Below, piece after piece: positions 2,846 through 29,679 of a DNA stretch of 64,000 nt. The stretch comes from Gemmatimonadota bacterium (lineage in GTDB: Bacteria > Gemmatimonadota > Gemmatimonadetes > Gemmatimonadales > GWC2-71-9). The stretch is taken from assembly GCA_039591075.1 (NCBI GenBank), contig JBDHEI010000004.1, positions 29,537-93,536 on the forward strand, read 5' to 3'. The stretch's first letter is position 1; every line of letters begins with the position of its first letter. Both the position numbers and the translations under genes were made by a program. Under the pieces are notes generated by a model. That model saw only the letters and a list, made by a program, of their open reading frames with translations, searched no databases and was not told where the DNA came from.

Positions 2846-2889
2846 TTGACATTCCTTCCTTGTCTGTTAGTGTATTAGTAAACCAATAC
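2846..2889 (+). promoter_or_regulatory. AT-rich promoter/operator island upstream of the gntR-ABC operon
   Basis: A perfect -35-like TTGACA lies at 2846-2851; the -10 is ambiguous. An inverted repeat GTATT-N8-AATAC lies at 2872-2889, just before the ATG at 2903. The 2792-2902 spacer is strikingly AT-rich for this window. Confidence 0.4.
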
Positions 2890-2902
2890 AGTCAGCCGCC
2901 AC

Positions 2903-3283
2903 ATGTTCGATCAGATCGATCCTCGCAGCCCAACGCCGCTCTACGACCAGATTGCCGGTCGTATTCGAGTAGCGGTGGCAGCAGGCGAGCTGCGACCCGG
3001 GGAGCATCTCCCCTCGGTGCGCCAGCTCGCCGGCCGGCTGCGGGTCAATCCGGCGACTGTGGTGCAGGCGTACCGAACGCTCGAGTCGGAGGGATTCGTC
3101 GAGATGCGTCAGGGATCCGGAACGTTTGTGCGGGAGATCGGTCCAGCGCGGCGGTCGGAGGAACGGAGTGAGCAGGCGCGCGATCTCGTGAGGGCGATGC
3201 TGGCCGAGGCGGGACGGCGCGGGCTGGCGGCGAAGGAGATCGTCGAGGCTTTCAACGACGAAACGGGGGCGGGAGTCCGATGA
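2903..3283 (+). CDS. GntR-family transcriptional regulator, short YtrA-like subtype
   Basis: wHTH sequence PLYDQIAGRIRVAVAAGELRPGEHLPSVRQLAGRLRVNPATVVQAYRTLESEGFVEMRQGSGTFV. The protein is only 126 aa. Confidence 0.9.
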   Translation: MFDQIDPRSPTPLYDQIAGRIRVAVAAGELRPGEHLPSVRQLAGRLRVNPATVVQAYRTLESEGFVEMRQGSGTFVREIGPARRSEERSEQARDLVRAMLAEAGRRGLAAKEIVEAFNDETGAGVR

Positions 3284-4182
3284 GCAACGCGATTGAGACG
3301 CGCGGACTGCATCACCGCCTGGGCAAGACGTTCGAGATCCGAGAACTCTGGCTCAGCGTCCCGTCGGGATCTATCTACGGCTTCCTCGGACCGAACGGTT
3401 CGGGGAAGACCACGACAGTGCGGTTGCTGCTCGGTTTGCTCCGACACGCGCGCGGTTCGGTGACCGTTCTGGGCCGGCCGATCCCGGGCGACACCCCGCG
3501 GGTGCTGGCGCGTACCGGCTACGTACCCGAGCGGCCGCATCTCTATGGCGTGCTCTCGGTGGGCGAGGCGATCCGCTACCATGCCGCGTTCTACAGCACG
3601 TGGGACCATCGGCGGGCCGACGAGCTGGTGCAGCGGTTTCATCTCGACGGGTCGCTCCGGATCAGCCGACTCTCGAAGGGCGAGACGGGCAAGCTCATGA
3701 TGCTGTTGGCCCTCGCACAGAGCCCGGACCTGTTGGTGCTCGACGAGCCCACCGACGGGCTGGATCCGGTTGTGCGGCGCGACGTGCTGACAGCACTGCT
3801 GGACTACGTGTCGCAGCACGATGCGACGGTGTTCATCTCGAGCCATCTCGTGCACGAGCTGGAACGCATCTGCGACTGGGTCGGCGTGATGGACAACGGT
3901 CGGCTCGTGGCGGAGATGCCCATGCAGACGTTCAAGAACGGGATCAAGCGGCTGCGCGTGACGGACGCACCTTCACTGTTGAGCGACACGCCTTTCGTGG
4001 TGCTGTCGCGCGAGCCGGGCGACAGGTTGAGCGGAGGCGAGGTGTGGGTGGTCCGTGGGTGGCAGGATCCGATGGAGCAGTACTTCGAGGGGATCGGCGC
4101 CGCGCTCCGCGAGGTAGTGGACCTCGATCTCGAGGAAGGGTTCGTGGAGCTGCTGCGCACGTTTCGGGCACCGACTGGCTGA
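3280..4182 (+). CDS. ABC transporter ATP-binding protein
   Basis: Walker A GPNGSGKTTT, signature LSKGETGKL and Walker B LLVLDEPTDGLD. ATGA overlap with the gntR stop. Confidence 0.92.
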   Translation: MSNAIETRGLHHRLGKTFEIRELWLSVPSGSIYGFLGPNGSGKTTTVRLLLGLLRHARGSVTVLGRPIPGDTPRVLARTGYVPERPHLYGVLSVGEAIRYHAAFYSTWDHRRADELVQRFHLDGSLRISRLSKGETGKLMMLLALAQSPDLLVLDEPTDGLDPVVRRDVLTALLDYVSQHDATVFISSHLVHELERICDWVGVMDNGRLVAEMPMQTFKNGIKRLRVTDAPSLLSDTPFVVLSREPGDRLSGGEVWVVRGWQDPMEQYFEGIGAALREVVDLDLEEGFVELLRTFRAPTG

Positions 4183-4191
4183 GGGAGCGAC

Positions 4192-4848
4192 ATGTTCCGG
4201 CAGATACTCTACACGCAGTGGAAATGGACGGGGCTCGGGATCGTGGCGGTGACGCTCGTGGCCTTTTCCCTCCCGATCCTGACGGTGCAGAAGTTGGGGA
4301 TCACCGACCCCACGTGGCTCGACGCCCGCGTGCTCCTCGCAGAGATCGAAGCATGGAGCCGGATCTACCCGGCGCTGGCGCTCACCATCGGATTGCTCGC
4401 CGGGACAATGGCGTGGACCCACGATCATCGGAATAAGCACGTCTATGCGCTAACCCTGCCGGTGCCGCGGTGGCACTATGTGCTGCTGCGGTTCGGCGCT
4501 GGGCTCGCCATGGTGATGGCGCCGATCGCGGCGCTGTGGCTCGGCTCTGTGCTTGCGAGTGCGATGGCCGTGATCCCGCCGGGTCTGCATGCGTATCCAC
4601 ACGCCGTAGCGTTGCGGTTCGCCGTTGCCGTGGTCCTCGCTTTCAGCATCTTCTTTGCGATCTCGGCGGGCACGGCCCGCACTGCCGGCTACATCCTCAC
4701 CATTGTGGGGGGGCTGTTCGTGACGCAGCTCCTGCTGGAACTGTCCGGTAGCAGCACCAACATCGTCATGCCGATATTCGATCGCATGGTCACGCTACCC
4801 GGACCCTTCGAGATCTTCACCGGCCGCTGGATGCTGATCGATGTGTAA
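4192..4848 (+). CDS. Integral membrane protein, probable permease partner of the ABC ATPase
   Basis: Starts 9 nt after the ATPase stop. About 5-6 hydrophobic helices (e.g. GLGIVAVTLVAFSLPIL, LRFAVAVVLAFSIFFAISA). No family motif recognised. Confidence 0.65.
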   Translation: MFRQILYTQWKWTGLGIVAVTLVAFSLPILTVQKLGITDPTWLDARVLLAEIEAWSRIYPALALTIGLLAGTMAWTHDHRNKHVYALTLPVPRWHYVLLRFGAGLAMVMAPIAALWLGSVLASAMAVIPPGLHAYPHAVALRFAVAVVLAFSIFFAISAGTARTAGYILTIVGGLFVTQLLLELSGSSTNIVMPIFDRMVTLPGPFEIFTGRWMLIDV

Positions 4849-7093: not shown

Positions 7094-8827
7094 TCACGCA
7101 CGGCTGCGGCCGCATGCGTCGGCTTTCGTGATTGCCACCTCCAGATCGGTACGAGACGCGGAGACACCCATGGTGGCGGCGCGCTCGATAGCCACCCGCA
7201 ACTCTTCGATGACCGCCTCGGCCACGCGCAGTTCACCCTGCAGCGCGACTTGCCGCGACTCGACTTCGCTACGCTGCTGCGGGGTAGAGCGGGTGTGGCC
7301 GCCGTCATCCCTTTCCCCTTCCTCCAGCAGGCGGTCGAGGCGTCCGAGTTGGCGCGCCAACGCTCGGACGCGAGCCACGATGCGATCGGCACTTCCCACC
7401 ACGCCGGGAATGCGGTCGCGCTCCGATCGCGGCAGGTTGGTCACGAGCCCCGCAATCACCGCACGCTCGCTGCGCACCCGCTGTACCGTGTCCACATGGG
7501 TGCCGAACGCCCCCGATCGCGATCCGAGTGTGCCAGAGGTCTCGGTCGACACGGAACCGCTGGGCGGGCTGTCACCGCCACGCAGGATGTCACGCGGCGT
7601 GTAACCAGTTGTCCACAGGCGACCGTACCGAAACGCCACGGGGAGCAGCCACAGCGCCGCGATGAGCGGTGCGAAATCCAGCGCCTTGTTAGTAGCGAGG
7701 TCGATGGCGAGCAGGGCGGCGTTGCCCAGTGCGAACACGGCAACGGTCCGCCGGAACCGGGCCACCGGCGTGACTGGCAGGGTCGTCATGGTGCGGATCG
7801 CAGCGCGGACGCCCGTGGCACGCGGTACGGCGTACCCGCCCGTCGTCTGCGGCCGGAGCAGTGCACAGAGTTCCCCAGCCGAGGCGTAGCGATCGTCCGG
7901 CTCCTTCGCCAGGCAGCGCGTCACCGCTTCGGCGAGGTCGGCTGGGCAGTCCGGCCGTCCCAGAGTGACCGACGGAGCCTCCTCACTAATCAGTCTCACG
8001 ATGAGGCCCTGAAACGTGGCCGCTCGGAACGGCAGCTCGCCCGTCAGCATCTGGTAGGCAACCACGCCGAGCGAGTAGAGGTCGGACCGGTGGTCCACCT
8101 CCGCCTCCGCGCTTGCCTGCTCGGGACTCATGTAGTCGGGTGTGCCTAAGAGCATGCCGGTGCCCGTCAGGCCTTGGCCGTCCTCCGGTTGGGCTGCGCG
8201 CGCAATCCCGAGGTCGGTGACGAGTACGCGTCGCTCGTCGCCCTCGAGCAGGATGTTGTCGGGCTTCACATCGCGATGGATCATTCCGGCGCGGTGCGCG
8301 TGGTGCAGGGCACTGGCCGCCTCGAACAGAATTCGTCGCACCTCGTCGAGCGGGAGCTTCCCCTCTCGCTTGGCTCGTTGGCCGAGGGTTTCGCCGTGAA
8401 TAAGTGGCATGACGAAGTAGGCGAGGCCATCGCTCTCACCCACAGTGTAAATCGGCATGATGTTGGGATGCCGGAGCTGCGCCATCGCCTCGGCTTCGCG
8501 CCGGAACCGTTCTAAGAGCAGCGGCGAGGCGTGAAAATCGTAGCGCAGCGTCTTGACAGCCACTTCGCGCTTCAGGCGCACATCGCGGGCGGCATACACC
8601 TCGGCGAACCCGCCCCGACCGAGCAACGTCCCGATCTCGTATTGGTCGCCCAGGGCGTGCCCCAGTCGTCGCCGATGCAGCTCCGCCCCGGACGACTGGG
8701 ATGCAGTACCCGTGTCACCTCCACGAAGCACAACGGAGAGCCGCTCACTGCCGCACTCCGGGCAGTAGCGTCCCCGATCGGGAAGCTCAGCGTTGCAGAC
8801 GGGACAGCGTTGGACGAGTTCAGCCAT
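7094..8827 (-). CDS. Ser/Thr protein kinase with N-terminal zinc ribbon, TM segments and coiled-coil tail
   Basis: Zinc ribbon CPVCNAELPDRGRYCPECG. Kinase motifs VAVKTL, HRDVKPDNILL, DLGIA and PDYMSPEQ. Hydrophobic helices ALGNAALLAIDLA and LIAALWLLPVAF. Confidence 0.9.
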   Translation of the reverse strand: MAELVQRCPVCNAELPDRGRYCPECGSERLSVVLRGGDTGTASQSSGAELHRRRLGHALGDQYEIGTLLGRGGFAEVYAARDVRLKREVAVKTLRYDFHASPLLLERFRREAEAMAQLRHPNIMPIYTVGESDGLAYFVMPLIHGETLGQRAKREGKLPLDEVRRILFEAASALHHAHRAGMIHRDVKPDNILLEGDERRVLVTDLGIARAAQPEDGQGLTGTGMLLGTPDYMSPEQASAEAEVDHRSDLYSLGVVAYQMLTGELPFRAATFQGLIVRLISEEAPSVTLGRPDCPADLAEAVTRCLAKEPDDRYASAGELCALLRPQTTGGYAVPRATGVRAAIRTMTTLPVTPVARFRRTVAVFALGNAALLAIDLATNKALDFAPLIAALWLLPVAFRYGRLWTTGYTPRDILRGGDSPPSGSVSTETSGTLGSRSGAFGTHVDTVQRVRSERAVIAGLVTNLPRSERDRIPGVVGSADRIVARVRALARQLGRLDRLLEEGERDDGGHTRSTPQQRSEVESRQVALQGELRVAEAVIEELRVAIERAATMGVSASRTDLEVAITKADACGRSRA

Positions 8828-8939
8828 AGGTGTTGGGGTGCGGCTTGCGACAATTATACCGGATCAGCTCCTTCAGAGATCCAATCCTTCTTTGCGGTCT
8901 TGAGAAACCTCCAGGGTGGTGCGAGGTTACGGGTCCCAC

Positions 8940-8997
<58 letters not shown>

Positions 8998-9011
<14 letters not shown>

Positions 9012-9146
9012 CTCACCAGGCTCGGATATGCGAGCCCGTTCTGCGTCGGCGCCGCGCCGCTTCGGTCCACGGCGCTCGTCTATCGACTCGCGCCTTAGGA
9101 TCAACTCTGCCCGGCGCCTCTCACCAGGCTCGCATGTGCGAGCCCG
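8998..9146 (+). repeat. 41-nt direct repeat pair duplicating the tRNA-Cys 3' end plus a downstream hairpin
   Basis: 8998-9038 reads tctgcccggcgcctctcaccaggctcgGatAtgcgagcccg and 9106-9146 reads tctgcccggcgcctctcaccaggctcgCatGtgcgagcccg, 39/41 identical. The 67-nt filler begins with an acceptor-like ggcgccg at 9049. Confidence 0.85.
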
Positions 9147-9472
9147 GTGCGGGGTGGTACTGGTTCTACAGCTACCGGTACGGACATGGCCTTGGACCCG
9201 CGGCACAGGAATACCTGGGCGACATGGTGGGTCGATTCGGCCGGGAGCGGTTCGAGCGGTTCTGGACATCCGATGCGCCGCTCGAGGAGGCGTTCGAAGA
9301 GGCGATGGGTATGCCGCTCGATCAGTGGACCATGCAATGGGCACGGACCTACATCGGCGTGCCGCGCACCGCAGGGCAACTTCCATGGGGCTCGGCCGTT
9401 CTCTCACTAGTGCTGGCTGCCGCGCTCGTGGGCGGTGCGGGGCTTTACGCCCAGCGGCGGCAGGTTGGTTAG
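9134..9472 (+). pseudogene. Truncated third paralogue of the 5938-7089 gene; C-terminal part only, possibly still expressed as a 112-aa membrane-anchored protein
   Basis: Encodes YLGDMVGRFGRERFERFWTSDAPLEEAFEEAMGMPLDQWTMQWARTY plus a TM helix, collinear with the last ~110 aa of 5938-7089. Nucleotides 9251-9295 match 6868-6912 at 40/45 positions by hand count. The ATG lies inside the second tRNA-end repeat. Confidence 0.55.
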
Positions 9473-9492
9473 GCGGTTAGGCGGTTGGGCGG
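9467..9492 (+). repeat. Tandem octamer array, left arm (GGTTAGGC GGTTAGGC GGTTGGGC GG)
   Basis: Read directly from the sequence. It overlaps the TAG stop of the truncated paralogue. It is the reverse complement of units in the 9575-9630 array. Confidence 0.9.
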
Positions 9493-9565
9493 TAAGTTCC
9501 TCCACAGAGGTCTGAGACGAAGTGGGTCGTCACGACGAAAGAGGACAACCCAACTCCGGGTTCCC

Positions 9566-11113
9566 ATGTCCGATCCAACCGCCCAACCGCCTACCCGCCT
9601 AACCGCTGAACCGCCTAACCGCCTAATCGACGACTGCCTGTCGACGAGGAACGGGCATCTCTTCGTCGAACAGTGCGATACGACGGATCTGGTGAGCCGG
9701 TTCGGTTCGCCGCTGTTCGTGATCTCCGAAGACCAGCTGCGCCGTAACGTGCGCCGGTTTCAGGCCGCGTTTGCGAGCGGGTGGCCCGATGGGCCGGTCA
9801 AGGTGCTGCCGGCCGCCAAGGCCAACTGGATTGCTGCCGTGCAGCACATCCTTGCCAGCGAAGGCTGCGGTTGCGACGTCTACTCGGCCGGTGAGCTCAC
9901 GGTGGCCCTACGGGCCGGCTTCGAACCCCAATACATCTCGGTCAACGGTGTGCCGAAAGACGACGAGCACATCTACCGATGCGTCCAGGAAGGTGTGCGC
10001 ATCACGATCGACAGCGTGGAGGAAGTGGACGCCATCGAGCGCGCGGCGACAGCGCTCGACGGCGTCGCCACGGTGCGGCTGCGGCTCAAACCCGCGCTCG
10101 CCGGGTTCGTGCGACACAGTGAGTTCGTGGCAGAAGGACTCGTCCCCACCGACATTGCCGCCCTCGCCTACAAGGGCGGGCTCGCGTTCGACGACGCAGT
10201 GGCGGTCGGCCGCCGCCTGCTCGCGATGGAGCACGTCGAGCTGGTGGGATTCCACCAGCATCACGGCCGGCACCACCGGTCGCTGCGCTACTGGGAAGAA
10301 CAGATGCGTGCCTTTGCCGCCGAGATCGCACGCGTGTGCGAGGCCCTGGGTGGATACCGTCCCCGCGAGATTGACATCGGCGGCGGGTTCGCGATTCCGC
10401 GGGATCCGTTCAATGCCGTGACTGATTACACCGAGCCACTGCAACTCGCCGTGCTCCACACCCTGTCGAAAGGGCTTTGGGTGTTGGGGCGCCGAGGGCG
10501 GTACGGCGTTCTGCGTCAACTCGTCGATCTGTTCGCGAGCAAGCCGAATGAGACGCCGGCCCCCAGCATCGAGGACTACGCCCGGGTGTGCACCGAAACG
10601 CTGCGGGATTCGCTCCACCGCGTGGGGATCGCCACCGAGGGGCTGCTGCTCGAGCTCGAGCCGGGCCGCTCGATCCACGGTGATGCCGGGATCCACCTGA
10701 CGACGGTGCGGAGCATCAAGCGCATGACCCACCCGATTCGATTCAACCTGGTGGTGGTGGACAGCACCGAGTTCTGGCTCACGGGTGGGCGCTACGAACA
10801 CCACCTGCACGACTATGTGTTCGCCAGCAAGACGGACGCCCCGCTCGAGGGCAAAGCCGACATCATCGGGCGGAGTTGCTTTGGCGATCGCCTGATGCCG
10901 CTGGTCAGGGTCCCCCAGGTTGAGGTAGGCGACCTCCTGGCGCTGCTGGATACGGGGGCCTACCAGGAGGTCTCGACGAGCAACTTCAATGCGCTGCCCC
11001 GGCCAGCCACGGTGCTGGTCACGGGCGATCAGGCGGCGATCGTCCGGCGGGCGGAGACCGAGACCGACGTGCTCCGCCGGGACATCCTTCCGGCACACCT
11101 GGGGAGGGGCTGA
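9566..11113 (+). CDS. PLP-dependent decarboxylase, Orn/DAP/Arg decarboxylase (alanine-racemase fold) family
   Basis: PLP-Lys context LPAAKANW, plus IDIGGGFAIP, LEPGRSIHG and active-site Cys GRSCFGD. The ATG at 9566 is preferred over the TTG at 9485. At 515 aa it is longer than typical LysA. Confidence 0.85.
   Translation: MSDPTAQPPTRLTAEPPNRLIDDCLSTRNGHLFVEQCDTTDLVSRFGSPLFVISEDQLRRNVRRFQAAFASGWPDGPVKVLPAAKANWIAAVQHILASEGCGCDVYSAGELTVALRAGFEPQYISVNGVPKDDEHIYRCVQEGVRITIDSVEEVDAIERAATALDGVATVRLRLKPALAGFVRHSEFVAEGLVPTDIAALAYKGGLAFDDAVAVGRRLLAMEHVELVGFHQHHGRHHRSLRYWEEQMRAFAAEIARVCEALGGYRPREIDIGGGFAIPRDPFNAVTDYTEPLQLAVLHTLSKGLWVLGRRGRYGVLRQLVDLFASKPNETPAPSIEDYARVCTETLRDSLHRVGIATEGLLLELEPGRSIHGDAGIHLTTVRSIKRMTHPIRFNLVVVDSTEFWLTGGRYEHHLHDYVFASKTDAPLEGKADIIGRSCFGDRLMPLVRVPQVEVGDLLALLDTGAYQEVSTSNFNALPRPATVLVTGDQAAIVRRAETETDVLRRDILPAHLGRG
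9575..9630 (+). repeat. Tandem octamer array, right arm (about 7 units of CYAACCGC) inside the 5' coding end of the decarboxylase
   Basis: Reads ccaaccgc ccaaccgc ctacccgc ctaaccgc tgaaccgc ctaaccgc ctaatcga, starting 9 nt after the ATG at 9566. It encodes the 8-aa periodicity PTAQPPTRL/TAEPPNRL. Confidence 0.9.
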
Positions 11114-11138
11114 GCGGAGGAGCGTCTCTCCGCGCCCG

Positions 11139-11167
11139 GCTTCACGCCCGCTTCACACCAGCTTCAT
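11139..11167 (+). promoter_or_regulatory. Three direct repeats GCTTCAC/GCTTCAC/GCTTCAT phased at exactly 11 bp
   Basis: Repeats start at 11139, 11150 and 11161, about 55 bp upstream of the ATG at 11223. The arrangement resembles winged-helix response-regulator sites. Confidence 0.4.
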
Positions 11168-11222
11168 CGCCCGCTGGCGATAGGTGAGTCCTACTCTGCA
11201 AACACCCGTAGAAGGAGACGGC

Positions 11223-11459
11223 ATGGCACTCGTAGTGCGTGAGGAAGTCCGACGGTCCGCGACGGACTGCCGCAAAGAGCTGAGCTGCCTGGCCGGAGAC
11301 GGGACGGACCTGTGCCCGGTGAAAGATTGCGTTGCCGGCACGGTTCACTTCATCGAGTGCCGATCAGAGGGCTATTGCTCGTACAAGCAGGCGTTTGGTG
11401 ACGCCCCTCTCTGTAGCTGTCCGGTTCGCAAAGAGCTGTACCGCGCGTACCGGGTTTGA
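11223..11459 (+). CDS. Small 8-cysteine protein (78 aa), putative metal/Fe-S binding
   Basis: Good SD (gaaggagacggcATG). Cys at positions 16, 22, 31, 36, 46, 52, 64 and 66, with a terminal LCSCPVRKELYRAY motif. The family is not confidently recognised. Confidence 0.6.
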   Translation: MALVVREEVRRSATDCRKELSCLAGDGTDLCPVKDCVAGTVHFIECRSEGYCSYKQAFGDAPLCSCPVRKELYRAYRV

Positions 11460-11624
11460 GAGCCCGACAGGAGCAGGCGCCCATCTGGACTGCAGTAAAC
11501 CGCATAAGTGAGATATCCCGTTCCGAAGGCCGTGGCCTTGGGCGGCAGCGAATGCCTGGGCTCGGTTCCCAATCGGGCCCACTGAGCAGCGAGATGCCGG
11601 ATCGCGGAACGCCCTAGACTCCCG

Positions 11625-11746
11625 CTGACCAACAGGTCAGCTCCATGCGAGGCCTTTGTGGCTGGAATGCCCGGATGTGCTTCGGGTGCCAGCCGCGTTC
11701 GGCGTCGCGAGGGGCTACACAAGCGACGTACTGACCTCAGGGTCAG
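11625..11746. repeat. Two perfect 16-bp palindromes CTGACC-N4-GGTCAG, 106 bp apart
   Basis: ctgaccaacaggtcag at 11625-11640 and ctgacctcagggtcag at 11731-11746. A related CCGACC-N9-GGTCGG lies at 11856-11876. Confidence 0.7.
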
Positions 11747-11894
11747 GTGGCGGTAGCTGCTCCAACCGCGCTGGAAGTGTTGGCTCCACTGACCGGAGCA
11801 CCTACCCTTTGGCCTTTCGTGGCCGTCGCACCGGTCGTTGGCTCCGGGATAGAGCCCGACCGCACCCTCAGGTCGGTCCCCCAGAATCTGGCAG

Positions 11895-11933
11895 TTGACC
11901 AGATCTCTGTAACAAGTATCTTATCACCAAGAT
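11895..11933 (+). promoter_or_regulatory. Putative sigma70-type promoter and operator for the MarR-fusion gene; would give a leaderless or near-leaderless mRNA
   Basis: TTGACC at 11895-11900, a 16-nt spacer, then TATCTT at 11917-11922; the ATG is at 11932. An inverted repeat ATCTT-N6-AAGAT (11918-11933) overlaps the -10 and the start codon. Confidence 0.4.
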
Positions 11934-13965
11934 GAATAGCACTGAGGGGTCTGGCCGTCCTGGACCCACCCCAAGTGCGAACTCGGCCACGGAGTTCTGG
12001 GAGGTTTTGGCCCGGGCCCATGCCCTGGTTGAGGCCCGGGTGGCCGAGCATGCGAGCCGGCATGACCTGACACTTGCTGAGTTCGGTGCGCTCGAGGCGC
12101 TCAGCCGACAGGGCCCGATGTTGCTCGGCGAGCTCCAGCGCCACGTCCTGGTCTCGAGCGGCGGCATGACCTATCTGGTCGATCGGCTCGAGTCGAGGGG
12201 ACTGGTGACTCGGCAGCCGAGTCCCACCGATCGCCGGGCGCGGTTCGCGGTGCTGACCGAAGACGGGCAGCGCCTGATAGACCGGATTGCCCCGGAACAT
12301 GTCCGCGCCGTCGCCGACGCGGTCGGTGGTATGAGCGCCGCAGAGCAACGGCAGGCAAGCACGCTGCTGCGGGCACTGGGTCTGGGCGTGGCAGAACCTG
12401 AGCGAGCCGCCGCCGCTCCAGCCGCGGTACTGCCGGCGGAGCCTGTGGTGTTGACCCGACCGGCACCGGTGGCCGCACGCATCGAGCCCCCGCAACCCGC
12501 TCCACCGGAGGTCGCCCAGCCGGCCCCGGTCGAAGTCCCCCAGGAGCCCGAACCGGAAGAGCCGACCCGACCCGAGCCGGAGGAAGTTGCCGCGGGGGGG
12601 CCGGCACCGGCGTTGGCTCCGGAGGACGTGGAGTGGGTCGAGGCAAGCGAGCCTGTGCCGGACGAGGAGCCAGCGCTCTTGATCGGGCCGGAGACCACCA
12701 TCCTCGTTATCGACGACGACCGCAGCACCCGGAGGGTGGCCAAGTCGGCCCTGGCGGGCCCGGGCCGCGAGATCATTGCCGTCGATTCGGCGGCCGAGGC
12801 GGAGCGGGCGCTGGCGCGACACGACGTGGCGCTGGTCGTTCTGTCACTCGTGCTCCCGGACGCCGACGGCCGAGCTGTATACACCCGGCTCAGCCGCCAG
12901 CGGACCACCGCGGCCATTCCCGTGATCATGGTGGCCTCCAAGGTGGGCGAGCGGGCAAGGGTGGAGTGTCTCGGGCTTGGTGTTGCCGAGTGGTTCGAGA
13001 AACCGATCGACGGCGGGGCGCTGGCACAGGCGGCCGATGCATTGCTCGAAGGCGGCTTGGTCCCGATCGCGTCGTCGGCGGATCCGGTGACCGCGGCCCT
13101 GAATCGCGCCGCGTTCGCCGAAGCGTACGAGCGCGAGGTCACCGCCCGGACGGACGATCCGACACCCACCGCACTCGCACTGCTCGATTTGGACGCCATT
13201 TCCGCGGTGAATCGTGAGCACGGCCGAGACATTGGTGACCGCGTGCTGCGTCAAATACGCGAGCTCCTGTCAGGCGTCCTCCGTGATACTGACGTCGTTG
13301 CCCGCTGGCGTGACGATGAGTTCGTGGTGCTCTTCCCGCAGTCGGATCCGGCGACCGCGACGCGCCTGCTCACCAGGACACAGGCCCTGCTCACCACGTC
13401 GCCGCCTACCGCACCGGACGGGACCGAGATCCCGATCACGTTCTCCGCGGGGATTGCCACGGCCAGCCCGCTTACCTCGATGGAAGAGGCCGTGGCCACC
13501 GCCGATCGCGCGCTGAGCCGGGCCAAGAGTGGAGGGCCGTCCCGCGTCGTGTCCGTCGAAGACGAGTCCACCGAGGCCCCGACCACCGTGCTCGTTGCCG
13601 AAGACGATCGGGTCACGGCGACCCTCGTGCGGCATCGGCTCGAGCGGGCCGGGTTCGAAGTCGTACACTGTGAGTCCGGTACTCTGGCGCTCGAGGCGGC
13701 GGAACAAGTGGCGTTCGGTCTCTGCATTTCGGACATCCGGATGCCCGGACTCGACGGCTTCGAGCTGGTGAAGCGCCTGCGGGCGTTGCCGCAGTACGAG
13801 GCCGTGCCGATCCTGATGCTGACGAGCCTTGGCCGCGAGGAGGACATTGTGCGTGCGTTCAGCCTCGGCGCCAGCGATTACATGACCAAACCGTTTTCGC
13901 CCGTGGAGCTTCTCGCCCGGGTGCAGCGTTTGCTGCGCCGCCGAGTCTCCTCGTCGCCGGCATGA
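11932..13965 (+). CDS. MarR-type wHTH / Pro-Ala linker / pseudo-receiver / degenerate GGDEF (RDDEF, I-site RxxD intact) / canonical receiver fusion protein
   Basis: MarR sequence LTLAEFGALEALSRQGPMLLGELQRHVLVSSGGMTYLVDRLESRGLVTRQPSPTDRRA. REC1 is ILVIDDD...LVVLSLVLPDADG, with Ser at the phospho-Asp position. The GGDEF fold shows LNRAAF, LLDLDAISAVNREHGRDIGD, RDTDVVARWRDDEFVV and ADRALSRAKSGG. REC2 is VLVAEDD...ISDIRMPGLDG...YMTKPF. Confidence 0.85.
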   Translation: MNSTEGSGRPGPTPSANSATEFWEVLARAHALVEARVAEHASRHDLTLAEFGALEALSRQGPMLLGELQRHVLVSSGGMTYLVDRLESRGLVTRQPSPTDRRARFAVLTEDGQRLIDRIAPEHVRAVADAVGGMSAAEQRQASTLLRALGLGVAEPERAAAAPAAVLPAEPVVLTRPAPVAARIEPPQPAPPEVAQPAPVEVPQEPEPEEPTRPEPEEVAAGGPAPALAPEDVEWVEASEPVPDEEPALLIGPETTILVIDDDRSTRRVAKSALAGPGREIIAVDSAAEAERALARHDVALVVLSLVLPDADGRAVYTRLSRQRTTAAIPVIMVASKVGERARVECLGLGVAEWFEKPIDGGALAQAADALLEGGLVPIASSADPVTAALNRAAFAEAYEREVTARTDDPTPTALALLDLDAISAVNREHGRDIGDRVLRQIRELLSGVLRDTDVVARWRDDEFVVLFPQSDPATATRLLTRTQALLTTSPPTAPDGTEIPITFSAGIATASPLTSMEEAVATADRALSRAKSGGPSRVVSVEDESTEAPTTVLVAEDDRVTATLVRHRLERAGFEVVHCESGTLALEAAEQVAFGLCISDIRMPGLDGFELVKRLRALPQYEAVPILMLTSLGREEDIVRAFSLGASDYMTKPFSPVELLARVQRLLRRRVSSSPA

Positions 13966-29460: not shown

Positions 29461-29679
29461 TCAGCTTTGTGCCCGGGGATGGTGCGTTTTGGTGTCGATG
29501 CCGAAGAGGGCATACAGCGGGCAGTTGTGTGTCAGGGCCGTGCCGCCGAGTACGAGGGCGACAACGGCTGCTCCGAGCGAGATGATGAGCTGCTCGTTGA
29601 ATAGCGCGGCGACGACGAGCAAGATCGCCGCCAGGGTACCGCGGACCCACGCATCCGCCCGTCCGACATTAACTCGCAT
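29461..29679 (-). CDS. DUF2892/YgaP-like small membrane protein
   Basis: 72 aa: N-terminal NVGRADAWVRGTLA, two TM helices, and a C-terminal CPLYALFGI motif characteristic of DUF2892. Confidence 0.7.
   Translation of the reverse strand: MRVNVGRADAWVRGTLAAILLVVAALFNEQLIISLGAAVVALVLGGTALTHNCPLYALFGIDTKTHHPRAQS

Follow-up and report, generated by a model that had tools for sequence, protein, structure and literature searches.

The REP, BIME, and REPIN repeats of Enterobacteria and Pseudomonas are short, lineage-specific, high-copy sequences that lie mostly outside genes, at gene 3′ ends or between the genes of operons, come as inverted pairs able to form long hairpins as ssDNA or as RNA, and cause assembly breaks and rearrangements (PMC3116915, PMC3337134). 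In Geobacter metallireducens, paired sites on opposite strands have been reported, each consisting of 3–5 tandem copies of a 7–9-nt unit (hepta-, octa-, or nona-nucleotide), separated by variable distances, intergenic and sometimes genic, and tentatively interpreted as binding sites of a global regulator (Aklujkar et al. 2009, PMC2700814, Additional files 7–9). Here, we describe an octamer repeat family of Gemmatimonadota, starting from one copy in a 64,000-nt stretch of contig JBDHEI010000004.1 from a Gemmatimonadota bacterium (assembly GCA_039591075.1, forward-strand positions 29,537–93,536; hereafter, the window, numbered from its first nucleotide). At window positions 9467–9630, two inverted arrays of an 8-nt unit bracket the start codon of a gene for a pyridoxal phosphate (PLP)-dependent decarboxylase similar to diaminopimelate (DAP) decarboxylases. 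Probably, these arrays represent one copy of a dispersed, lineage-specific, hairpin-forming Gemmatimonadota repeat, half of which has been absorbed into coding sequence.

With REP and REPIN sequences, the octamer family shares high copy number, dispersal, mainly extragenic location, lineage specificity, and inverted hairpin-forming pairs. It lacks their palindromic unit and conserved spacer: a REP is a single imperfect palindrome of 20–40 nt and the REPIN spacer is conserved, whereas the octamer family consists of tandem arrays of the non-palindromic unit GGTTAGGC, 3–15 units long, around unrelated loops. The paired sites of Geobacter are the closest described architecture, a resemblance of architecture and not homology. 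Their units (GTTGCTYN, TCTCCGTSY, and MTYCTGA) are unrelated to the octamer; they were reported in one species, whereas the octamer family occurs in approximately 36 species-level Gemmatimonadota genomes (a lower bound); and translated copies, which the octamer family has, are absent from the Geobacter description. In the literature searched, no paper containing a 16-mer of the repeat was found, nor anything on Gemmatimonadota repeats beyond CRISPR. We regard the family as a REP- and STRR-like repeat for which no published description was found.

The cyanobacterial short tandemly repeated repetitive (STRR) sequences, heptamer arrays reportedly described by Mazel et al. in 1990, are a looser analogue that shares with the octamer family its dispersed, lineage-typical arrays of 7–8-nt units; to our knowledge, they have not been described as obligate inverted pairs of fixed polarity, and their unit and phylum also differ. 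The Correia elements of Neisseria and inverted pairs of DNA uptake sequences (DUS) are small intergenic inverted repeats that occur in transcripts, form hairpins or downstream terminators, and can alter the expression of neighboring genes. Correia elements are RNase III substrates with a conserved core and a TA target duplication, and DUS are single 10–12-mers, whereas the octamer family forms tandem arrays with neither core nor target duplication.

In the window, the upstream array (the G-arm, 9467–9493, plus strand) reads GGTTAGGC GGTTAGGC GGTTGGGC GGT, or 3.4 octamer units, and was apparent both from the sequence and from an inverted-repeat search as well as from Tandem Repeats Finder, which reported a period-8 array of 3.4 copies with 94% matches to the unit GGTTAGGC. 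The downstream array (the C-arm, 9575–9630, plus strand) consists of seven CCGCCTAA-type octamers in the CCAACCGC register, delineated by the repeat search, a per-unit frame table, and Tandem Repeats Finder (9577–9626, period 8, 6.2 copies, 83% matches, unit AACCGCCT). The two arms can pair in six registers, the best of which joins 9467–9493 to 9578–9604 over 27 nt with 96% complementarity and 84 nt between. An earlier, sequence-only reading of this DNA had described inverted octamer arrays around the decarboxylase start, pairing over about 26 bp with one mismatch around a loop of about 80 nt; these arrays are real and closely match that description. The predicted RNA structure of 9440–9660 is likewise strong, at −112.7 kcal/mol compared with −79.5 ± 4.6 kcal/mol for dinucleotide shuffles (z = −7.3; none of 200 shuffles folded as stably). 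At no more than one mismatch, GGTTAGGCGG has 9 occurrences in the 64-kb window where 3.5 would be expected, and all but one of these fall within 9467–9628.

The loop (9494–9574, plus strand; delineated from the sequence, the fold, and the relatives) contains a Shine-Dalgarno (SD)-like GAGG at 9541–9544, unusually far (21 nt) from the start codon, a small hairpin, AACCC-AACTCC-GGGTT, at 9547–9562 that surfaced on the minus strand in a promoter/terminator scan, and the ATG at 9566–9568 that opens the decarboxylase open reading frame (ORF), so that the start codon indeed lies between the arms, as the sequence-only reading had it. The C-arm begins 9–10 nt into this ORF and translates to MSDPTAQPPTRLTAEPPNRL, the predicted 8-aa periodic N-terminal peptide. 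On the other side, the first G-arm unit contains TAG (9470–9472), the stop codon of the upstream ORF. The element thus sits at the junction of a truncated upstream gene and a DAP-decarboxylase-like gene, with the G-arm supplying the stop of the former.

The evidence that this is one member of a family comes from a scan of one genome per GTDB species with the 20-nt pattern GGTTAGGCGGTTRRGCGGTT, which matched more than 105 genome stretches (a lower bound), compared with approximately 4 estimated by chance in 596 Gb. Among the matches listed, 86 of 105 belong to approximately 36 metagenome-assembled genomes (MAGs) of Gemmatimonadota, Gemmatimonadales, or Gemmatimonadaceae, often with many per genome and with up to nine arrays in a single 8-kb chunk (L062). 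Arrays were delineated with our own scanner, which required 3 or more units, each with 6 or more of its 8 bases matching. It identified 61 adjacent array pairs, of which 55 have the form (GGTTAGGC)n-loop-(GCCTAACC)m, 6 are on the same strand, and none has the reverse order; when the partner threshold was relaxed, 108 of 183 Gemmatimonadota arrays had a partner in the order G-arm then C-arm, and none had one in the reverse order only. The consensus across 1003 units is GGTT(A 61% / G 32%)GGC. Arms comprise 3–15 units and differ freely in length between the two sides of an element; the medians are 25 nt for the gap, 85 nt for the element length, and −55 kcal/mol for the minimum free energy. Loops vary from −3 to 128 nt in length, no word of 12 nt or longer recurs among them, save at a single locus found in two MAGs, and the flanks contain no direct repeat beyond the null that would signal a target-site duplication (mean longest shared word, 3.98 vs 3.98 nt). 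Gene 3′ ends are the usual location, although some elements precede start codons or lie inside genes: by a crude GC3-based ORF caller, 3′ ends account for 41 of the 58 flanks that could be classified and 5′ ends for the other 17. The stop codon is usually found between −54 and +22 of the arm and, in 9 cases, inside the first units; canonical terminator hairpins with a T run are enclosed in the loops of 5 of 52 elements.

Arm complementarity is approximately 80–88% family-wide. Given this level and the lack of wobble bias described below, pairing appears to reflect one shared consensus, with no visible selection for an RNA helix. The two arms of an element resemble each other only slightly more than arms taken from different elements do (0.794 vs 0.771; none of 2000 permutations was as high); covariation between arms was not counted as compensatory evidence, being confounded by genome-specific unit variants.

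Outside Gemmatimonadota, 16 of 19 arrays are unpaired. Long GGTTAGGC/GGTTAGGG arrays are also present in Lewinellaceae/Lewinella (Bacteroidota; L018 2770–2882 and L047 5973–6036), and an inverted array of the GCCTAATA type comes after that of L018; independent origin and transfer are both possible. Among 2.9 million viral contigs, a single unpaired array was found, a perfect run of six GCCTAACC units without an inverted partner (L128 11559–11606, IMG/VR UViG 2895086148_000002), and phages are no obvious carrier of the arrays.

At the decarboxylase locus itself, comparison with relatives shows that arm length changes by whole units and that every observed variant is in frame. The element is identical to that of the window in two other samples of the same species (L123 and L124). 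Three further relatives share the 20-aa N-terminal extension: L127 differs from the window by point changes only; L121 (P0128) has its G-arm directly after tRNA-Cys; and in L125 (P0125), all three G-arm units have become GGGTAGGC by a T-to-G change, with no compensation in the C-arm. In L122 (P0127), the extension is 28 aa (three additional units), and the upstream array is oriented like the coding array. The five contigs L001–L005 (P0001) encode a 13-aa extension read from an ATG in a different register, with a degenerate TAAGGCGG G-arm whose unit number is the same in all five. The closest relative without the repeat, L015 (P0003, 81% identity), has no arms. The unit number at this locus is accordingly 5, 7, or 10 between lineages, and four diverged lineages all have 7; variation among relatives, which the sequence-only reading had suggested comparing, exists between lineages and is not seen within the species. 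The inverted arrangement is retained in the window, L125, L127, L121, and L001. Stem z-scores run from −7.3 in L121, −6.8 in the window, and −5.1 in L125 to −2.8 in L001, −0.5 in L122, and +0.8 in L015. A scenario in which the element was inserted into an overlapping gene junction, with L015 retaining the same upstream gene across the start codon (ATGA), was considered and is not established, as no homology is detectable between the upstream ORFs (E = 0.23). A gap-tolerant metagenome scan for C-arm length variants, of low power, recovered only 2 contigs, both in frame. All nine Logan short-read contigs encoding P0002 (L006–L014) have an identical starting position within the G-arm, which makes the repeat a systematic assembly breakpoint.

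The decarboxylase (P0121; 515 aa, 9566–11,113, plus strand) has the Orn/DAP/Arg decarboxylase fold (Pfam PF02784/PF00278) and is LysA-like, scoring 238 bits against NCBIfam TIGR01048, below the lysA equivalog cut-off of 298. Residues 1–20 are a repeat-encoded extension missing from most homologues: more than 100 homologues with 70–80% identity lack the repeat and start 5–8 aa before the conserved IDDCLSTR block, and the solved structure of Methanocaldococcus jannaschii LysA (PDB 1twi) aligns from query residue 22. Could translation start downstream of the repeat? The first in-frame start beyond the C-arm, and hence beyond 9630, is GTG at 9692, which would remove 22 residues conserved in all homologues, and upstream of the conserved block, ATG 9566 and TTG 9485 are the sole in-frame candidates; therefore, the C-arm encodes residues 4–21 (DPTAQPPTRLTAEPPNRL). 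The 20-aa extension is proline-rich, with PPxRLTAx periodicity, evidently repeat-derived, and probably dispensable.

The coding frame of the C-arm further suggests how a non-coding repeat came to be translated. The canonical unit CCGCCTAA carries TAA, and since its length is not divisible by 3, this triplet falls in frame once in every three units. In the window, the in-frame positions read CAA (unit 2) and GAA (unit 5), and across the window and five related lineages, none of 13 in-frame positions is a stop (they read CAA, GAA, AAA, GTA, or CGA), compared with 17 of 31 out-of-frame positions in the same six lineages that still are, closing both other frames. This in-frame loss of TAA is the signature of a non-coding repeat that was read through and then repaired by selection. 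A second case is a VWA-like gene (...AVGRSGGQA...PPNRPTAQPP...) that contains both arms (L074 2150–2215; L049 3560–3720 and L072 1440–1580, both on the minus strand); its C-arm has 1 unit in L072 and 4 in L049 and L074, an in-frame difference of 24 nt (8 aa). The changes in unit number at the decarboxylase and the VWA-like gene would fit slippage filtered by frame.

The sequence-only reading had proposed two functions for the arrays that the family context renders improbable. The first is a locus-specific translational or transcript-stability switch, in which the arms pair in the mRNA, the ribosome-binding region is trapped in the loop, and expression needs the stem to be opened or cleaved. 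Strong predicted stems in the window (z = −7.3), L125 (−5.1), and L121 (−7.3) and the maintenance of the inverted arrangement in L001, L127, and these three loci would suit such a switch, and because the C-arm begins at +10, within the ribosome footprint as generally understood, the stem could dampen initiation. Nevertheless, dozens of unrelated loci have the same architecture, mostly after stop codons; L122 keeps a long translated array although its upstream array is direct and forms no long stem (z = −0.5); the three G-arm changes of L125 are uncompensated; and the stem of L001 is weak (z = −2.8). The SD-like region and the AUG, moreover, lie in the loop, with the stem starting only at +10, and their predicted accessibility does not depend on the stem: averaged over −20 to +12 relative to the AUG, the probability of being unpaired is 0.35–0.56 at all loci, with or without a stem, and is 0.38 in the window compared with 0.37–0.50 in the stemless loci, such as L015 and L122. 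No promoter-like site was found in a scan of 8700–9800 that would place the transcription start, nor a terminator-like site for the window element, and an Rfam search of 8000–12,000 at a permissive E-value yielded only tRNA-Cys as a real match; the sub-threshold tetrahydrofolate (THF) riboswitch match (22.6 bits, cut-off 36) is an artefact driven by the long stem. Assignment to a cis-regulatory RNA class is not supported, given the uncompensated changes of L125, the direct arrays of L122, the family-wide lack of a G·U over A·C bias, and the lack of a curated-family match, and neither is assignment to the intrinsic (Rho-independent) terminators, in which a U tract follows a G+C-rich hairpin, as most members have no T-rich tail. 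A switch selected at this locus is, on this evidence, unlikely. Still less can be said for the second proposal, a contingency (phase-variable) locus in which 8-nt slippage within the ORF toggles the decarboxylase at high frequency. Contingency loci of Haemophilus, Neisseria, and Campylobacter are long, perfect tracts that are polymorphic within populations, and imperfection of a tract strongly lowers slippage. The decarboxylase tract resembles them in having, directly behind the start codon (codons 4–21), a unit whose length is not divisible by three, and its unit number does vary between lineages (5, 7, or 10); furthermore, both alternative frames of the arm contain stops, so that a one-unit change would, as anticipated, frameshift the ORF and create a null allele. 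In contrast to contingency tracts, however, it is degenerate, its seven units representing five different sequences with a longest identical run of 2, and it is invariant within species (the window, L123, and L124 are identical, and the G-arm unit number is constant in L001–L005), remains at 7 units in four diverged lineages, and is in frame in every lineage seen, including the 2 contigs of the metagenome scan. The allele survey is limited in that exact-protein look-ups cannot return frameshifted alleles and assemblies give the consensus and not minority alleles. We consider phase variation here extremely improbable.

Other explanations concern the family as a whole. Transposition of a MITE (a miniature transposable element with inverted repeats) or a REPIN into intergenic space, with the octamer arrays as terminal inverted repeats, would account for a median length of 85 nt, many copies per genome, and presence or absence between relatives (L015 has none), and the strict polarity would fit a hairpin-specific Y1 (RAYT/IS200-type) enzyme; it is nonetheless very unlikely, as there is no target-site duplication beyond the null and no conserved core, the loops (−3 to 128 nt) share no word of 12 nt or more bar one orthologous pair, the arms vary freely on each side (3–15 units), and some loops are pre-existing terminators or a whole gene. 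Could the arrays instead be cooperative sites for a lineage-specific DNA-binding protein, a nucleoid protein or global regulator, with the hairpin potential incidental? The same architecture of tandem short units in inverted pairs at variable distance was read in this way in Geobacter (PMC2700814), a proposal that may itself be considered a guess. The stem shows no sign of selection at the RNA level, and the arms are only approximately 80–88% complementary. Variable spacing and strict arm order do not, however, agree easily with binding of duplex DNA by a fixed dimer, and an 8-bp period would set successive sites on different helical faces. We know of no candidate binding protein for the arrays, and consider this explanation doubtful. 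Hairpin stability alone is no explanation for G-arm-then-C-arm order with arbitrary loops, which suggests either a polarity-sensitive recognizing enzyme or a process that adds GGTTAGGC to 3′ ends. The pairs might then be produced by an active, polarity-specific system peculiar to Gemmatimonadota, a proposal to which we assign a low probability. Candidate generators would be a hairpin-recognizing Y1/RAYT-like enzyme or the templated addition of GGTTAGGC to 3′ ends at breaks or stalled forks; the latter would automatically place a G-arm to the left and a C-arm to the right of any enclosed sequence. Such a system, if it exists, would continually seed gene ends with arrays, cause deletions between copies (as in L001 vs L121), and introduce new peptide segments (PPNRLTAQ).

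We therefore favor the interpretation of the window element as a copy of a dispersed, REP-like family that was partly absorbed into the decarboxylase gene. The arms would lengthen and shorten through slipped-strand mispairing, and within coding sequence, only changes that preserve the frame would survive. Where both arms are on one transcript, a stem of approximately 27–38 bp is expected; in typical members, it may play the role of a REP-type 3′ hairpin, in 3′-end protection or non-canonical termination, and in the decarboxylase mRNA, a stem extending from +10 onward would probably lower initiation or offer an RNase III site. We read any such effect on initiation as a side-effect of the landing site and not as a selected switch.

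Several points weigh against this interpretation. Co-transcription of both arms and the REP-like role are predictions. Five of six related lineages keep the arms inverted at this locus, so that some local function may be involved. A T-rich tail is present in only 3 of 52 elements, so that the family does not consist of canonical terminators, and among transition differences between arms, no asymmetry of G·U-type over A·C-type relative to the direction of the flanking gene was detected (54 vs 50, p = 0.77). The window contains only one copy of the family. The densities and the taxonomic share from the genome scan are lower bounds or samples, and the 41:17 enrichment at gene 3′ ends is approximate, given our own crude ORF caller.

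Upstream of the element lie a tRNA-Cys (GCA) gene (8940–9012, plus strand; ARAGORN, and 67 bits against the Rfam tRNA model) and the truncated gene (9152–9472, plus strand; blastn against L001 and gene tables). The sequence-only reading had called the latter an upstream fragment whose stop overlaps the left arm; the overlap is correct, and the fragment proves to be the 3′ remnant (~107 codons, encoding a C-terminal hydrophobic helix among others) of a gene that is intact, with 395 aa, in L001 (in L123, a gene caller gives a 112-aa ORF). Between the two, a 41-nt direct repeat read directly from the sequence (8998–9038 and 9106–9146, plus strand, 39/41 identical), comprising the last 15 nt of tRNA-Cys and the 26 nt downstream, forms part of the context outside the element. 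Homology to L001 resumes just past it, at 9152, in the middle of the 395-aa gene, and the repeat looks like an att-like scar or a deletion junction at the tRNA gene. Most of a five-gene block that separates tRNA-Cys from the decarboxylase in L001 is gone from the window, which retains the 41-nt direct repeat and the terminal ~107 codons.

Members of the octamer family are also found at this tRNA gene, a G-arm beginning 4–8 nt after tRNA-Cys in both L001 and L121. In L001, a second G-arm/C-arm element (420–604) lies right after tRNA-Cys, 4.4 kb upstream of the decarboxylase element. In L121 (~2920–3100), tRNA-Cys is followed by CTCTGGC, a G-arm, a decarboxylase-type loop, and a C-arm, and the 4.4 kb are missing. 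L121 has the structure expected from a deletion between the two direct G-arms of L001, which suggests that the arrays may mediate rearrangements.

Some further observations concern the surroundings of the arrays. In L001, a block of GntR, ABC-transporter, and 218-aa genes lies between tRNA-Cys and the decarboxylase (634–2612). A ~70% identical copy is located at 2868–4847 of the window, on the other side of a Ser/Thr kinase, in flanks that are ~90% identical; this copy could represent a paralogue or else a segment that was displaced and diverged. In L125, L127, and L121, the 3′ half of the decarboxylase loop is conserved. An 11-nt tandem repeat, CGCCCGCTTCA (11,133–11,175, 3.7 copies, 81% matches), starts 20 nt past the decarboxylase stop. 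In three genomes, a G-arm and a C-arm ~460 nt apart flank a gene of 121–125 aa whose product belongs to the 23S rRNA intervening-sequence protein family, a four-helix bundle (PF05635; L049 2462–2956, L074 2845–3327, and L072 327–833).

For the decarboxylase gene, these findings mean that annotation of the repeat as a riboswitch-like leader or a phase-variation tract is not warranted. For Gemmatimonadota, they describe an abundant repeat that interrupts short-read assemblies at set positions, coincides with rearrangement junctions near tRNA-Cys, and could serve as a lineage marker or a target for strain typing. The strict order of the arms around arbitrary loop content makes any machinery that generates or recognizes them worth seeking. 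The repeat, moreover, enters proteins in increments of 24 nt (8 aa), and the C-arm of the decarboxylase gene provides a small natural case of a non-coding repeat turned into coding sequence.

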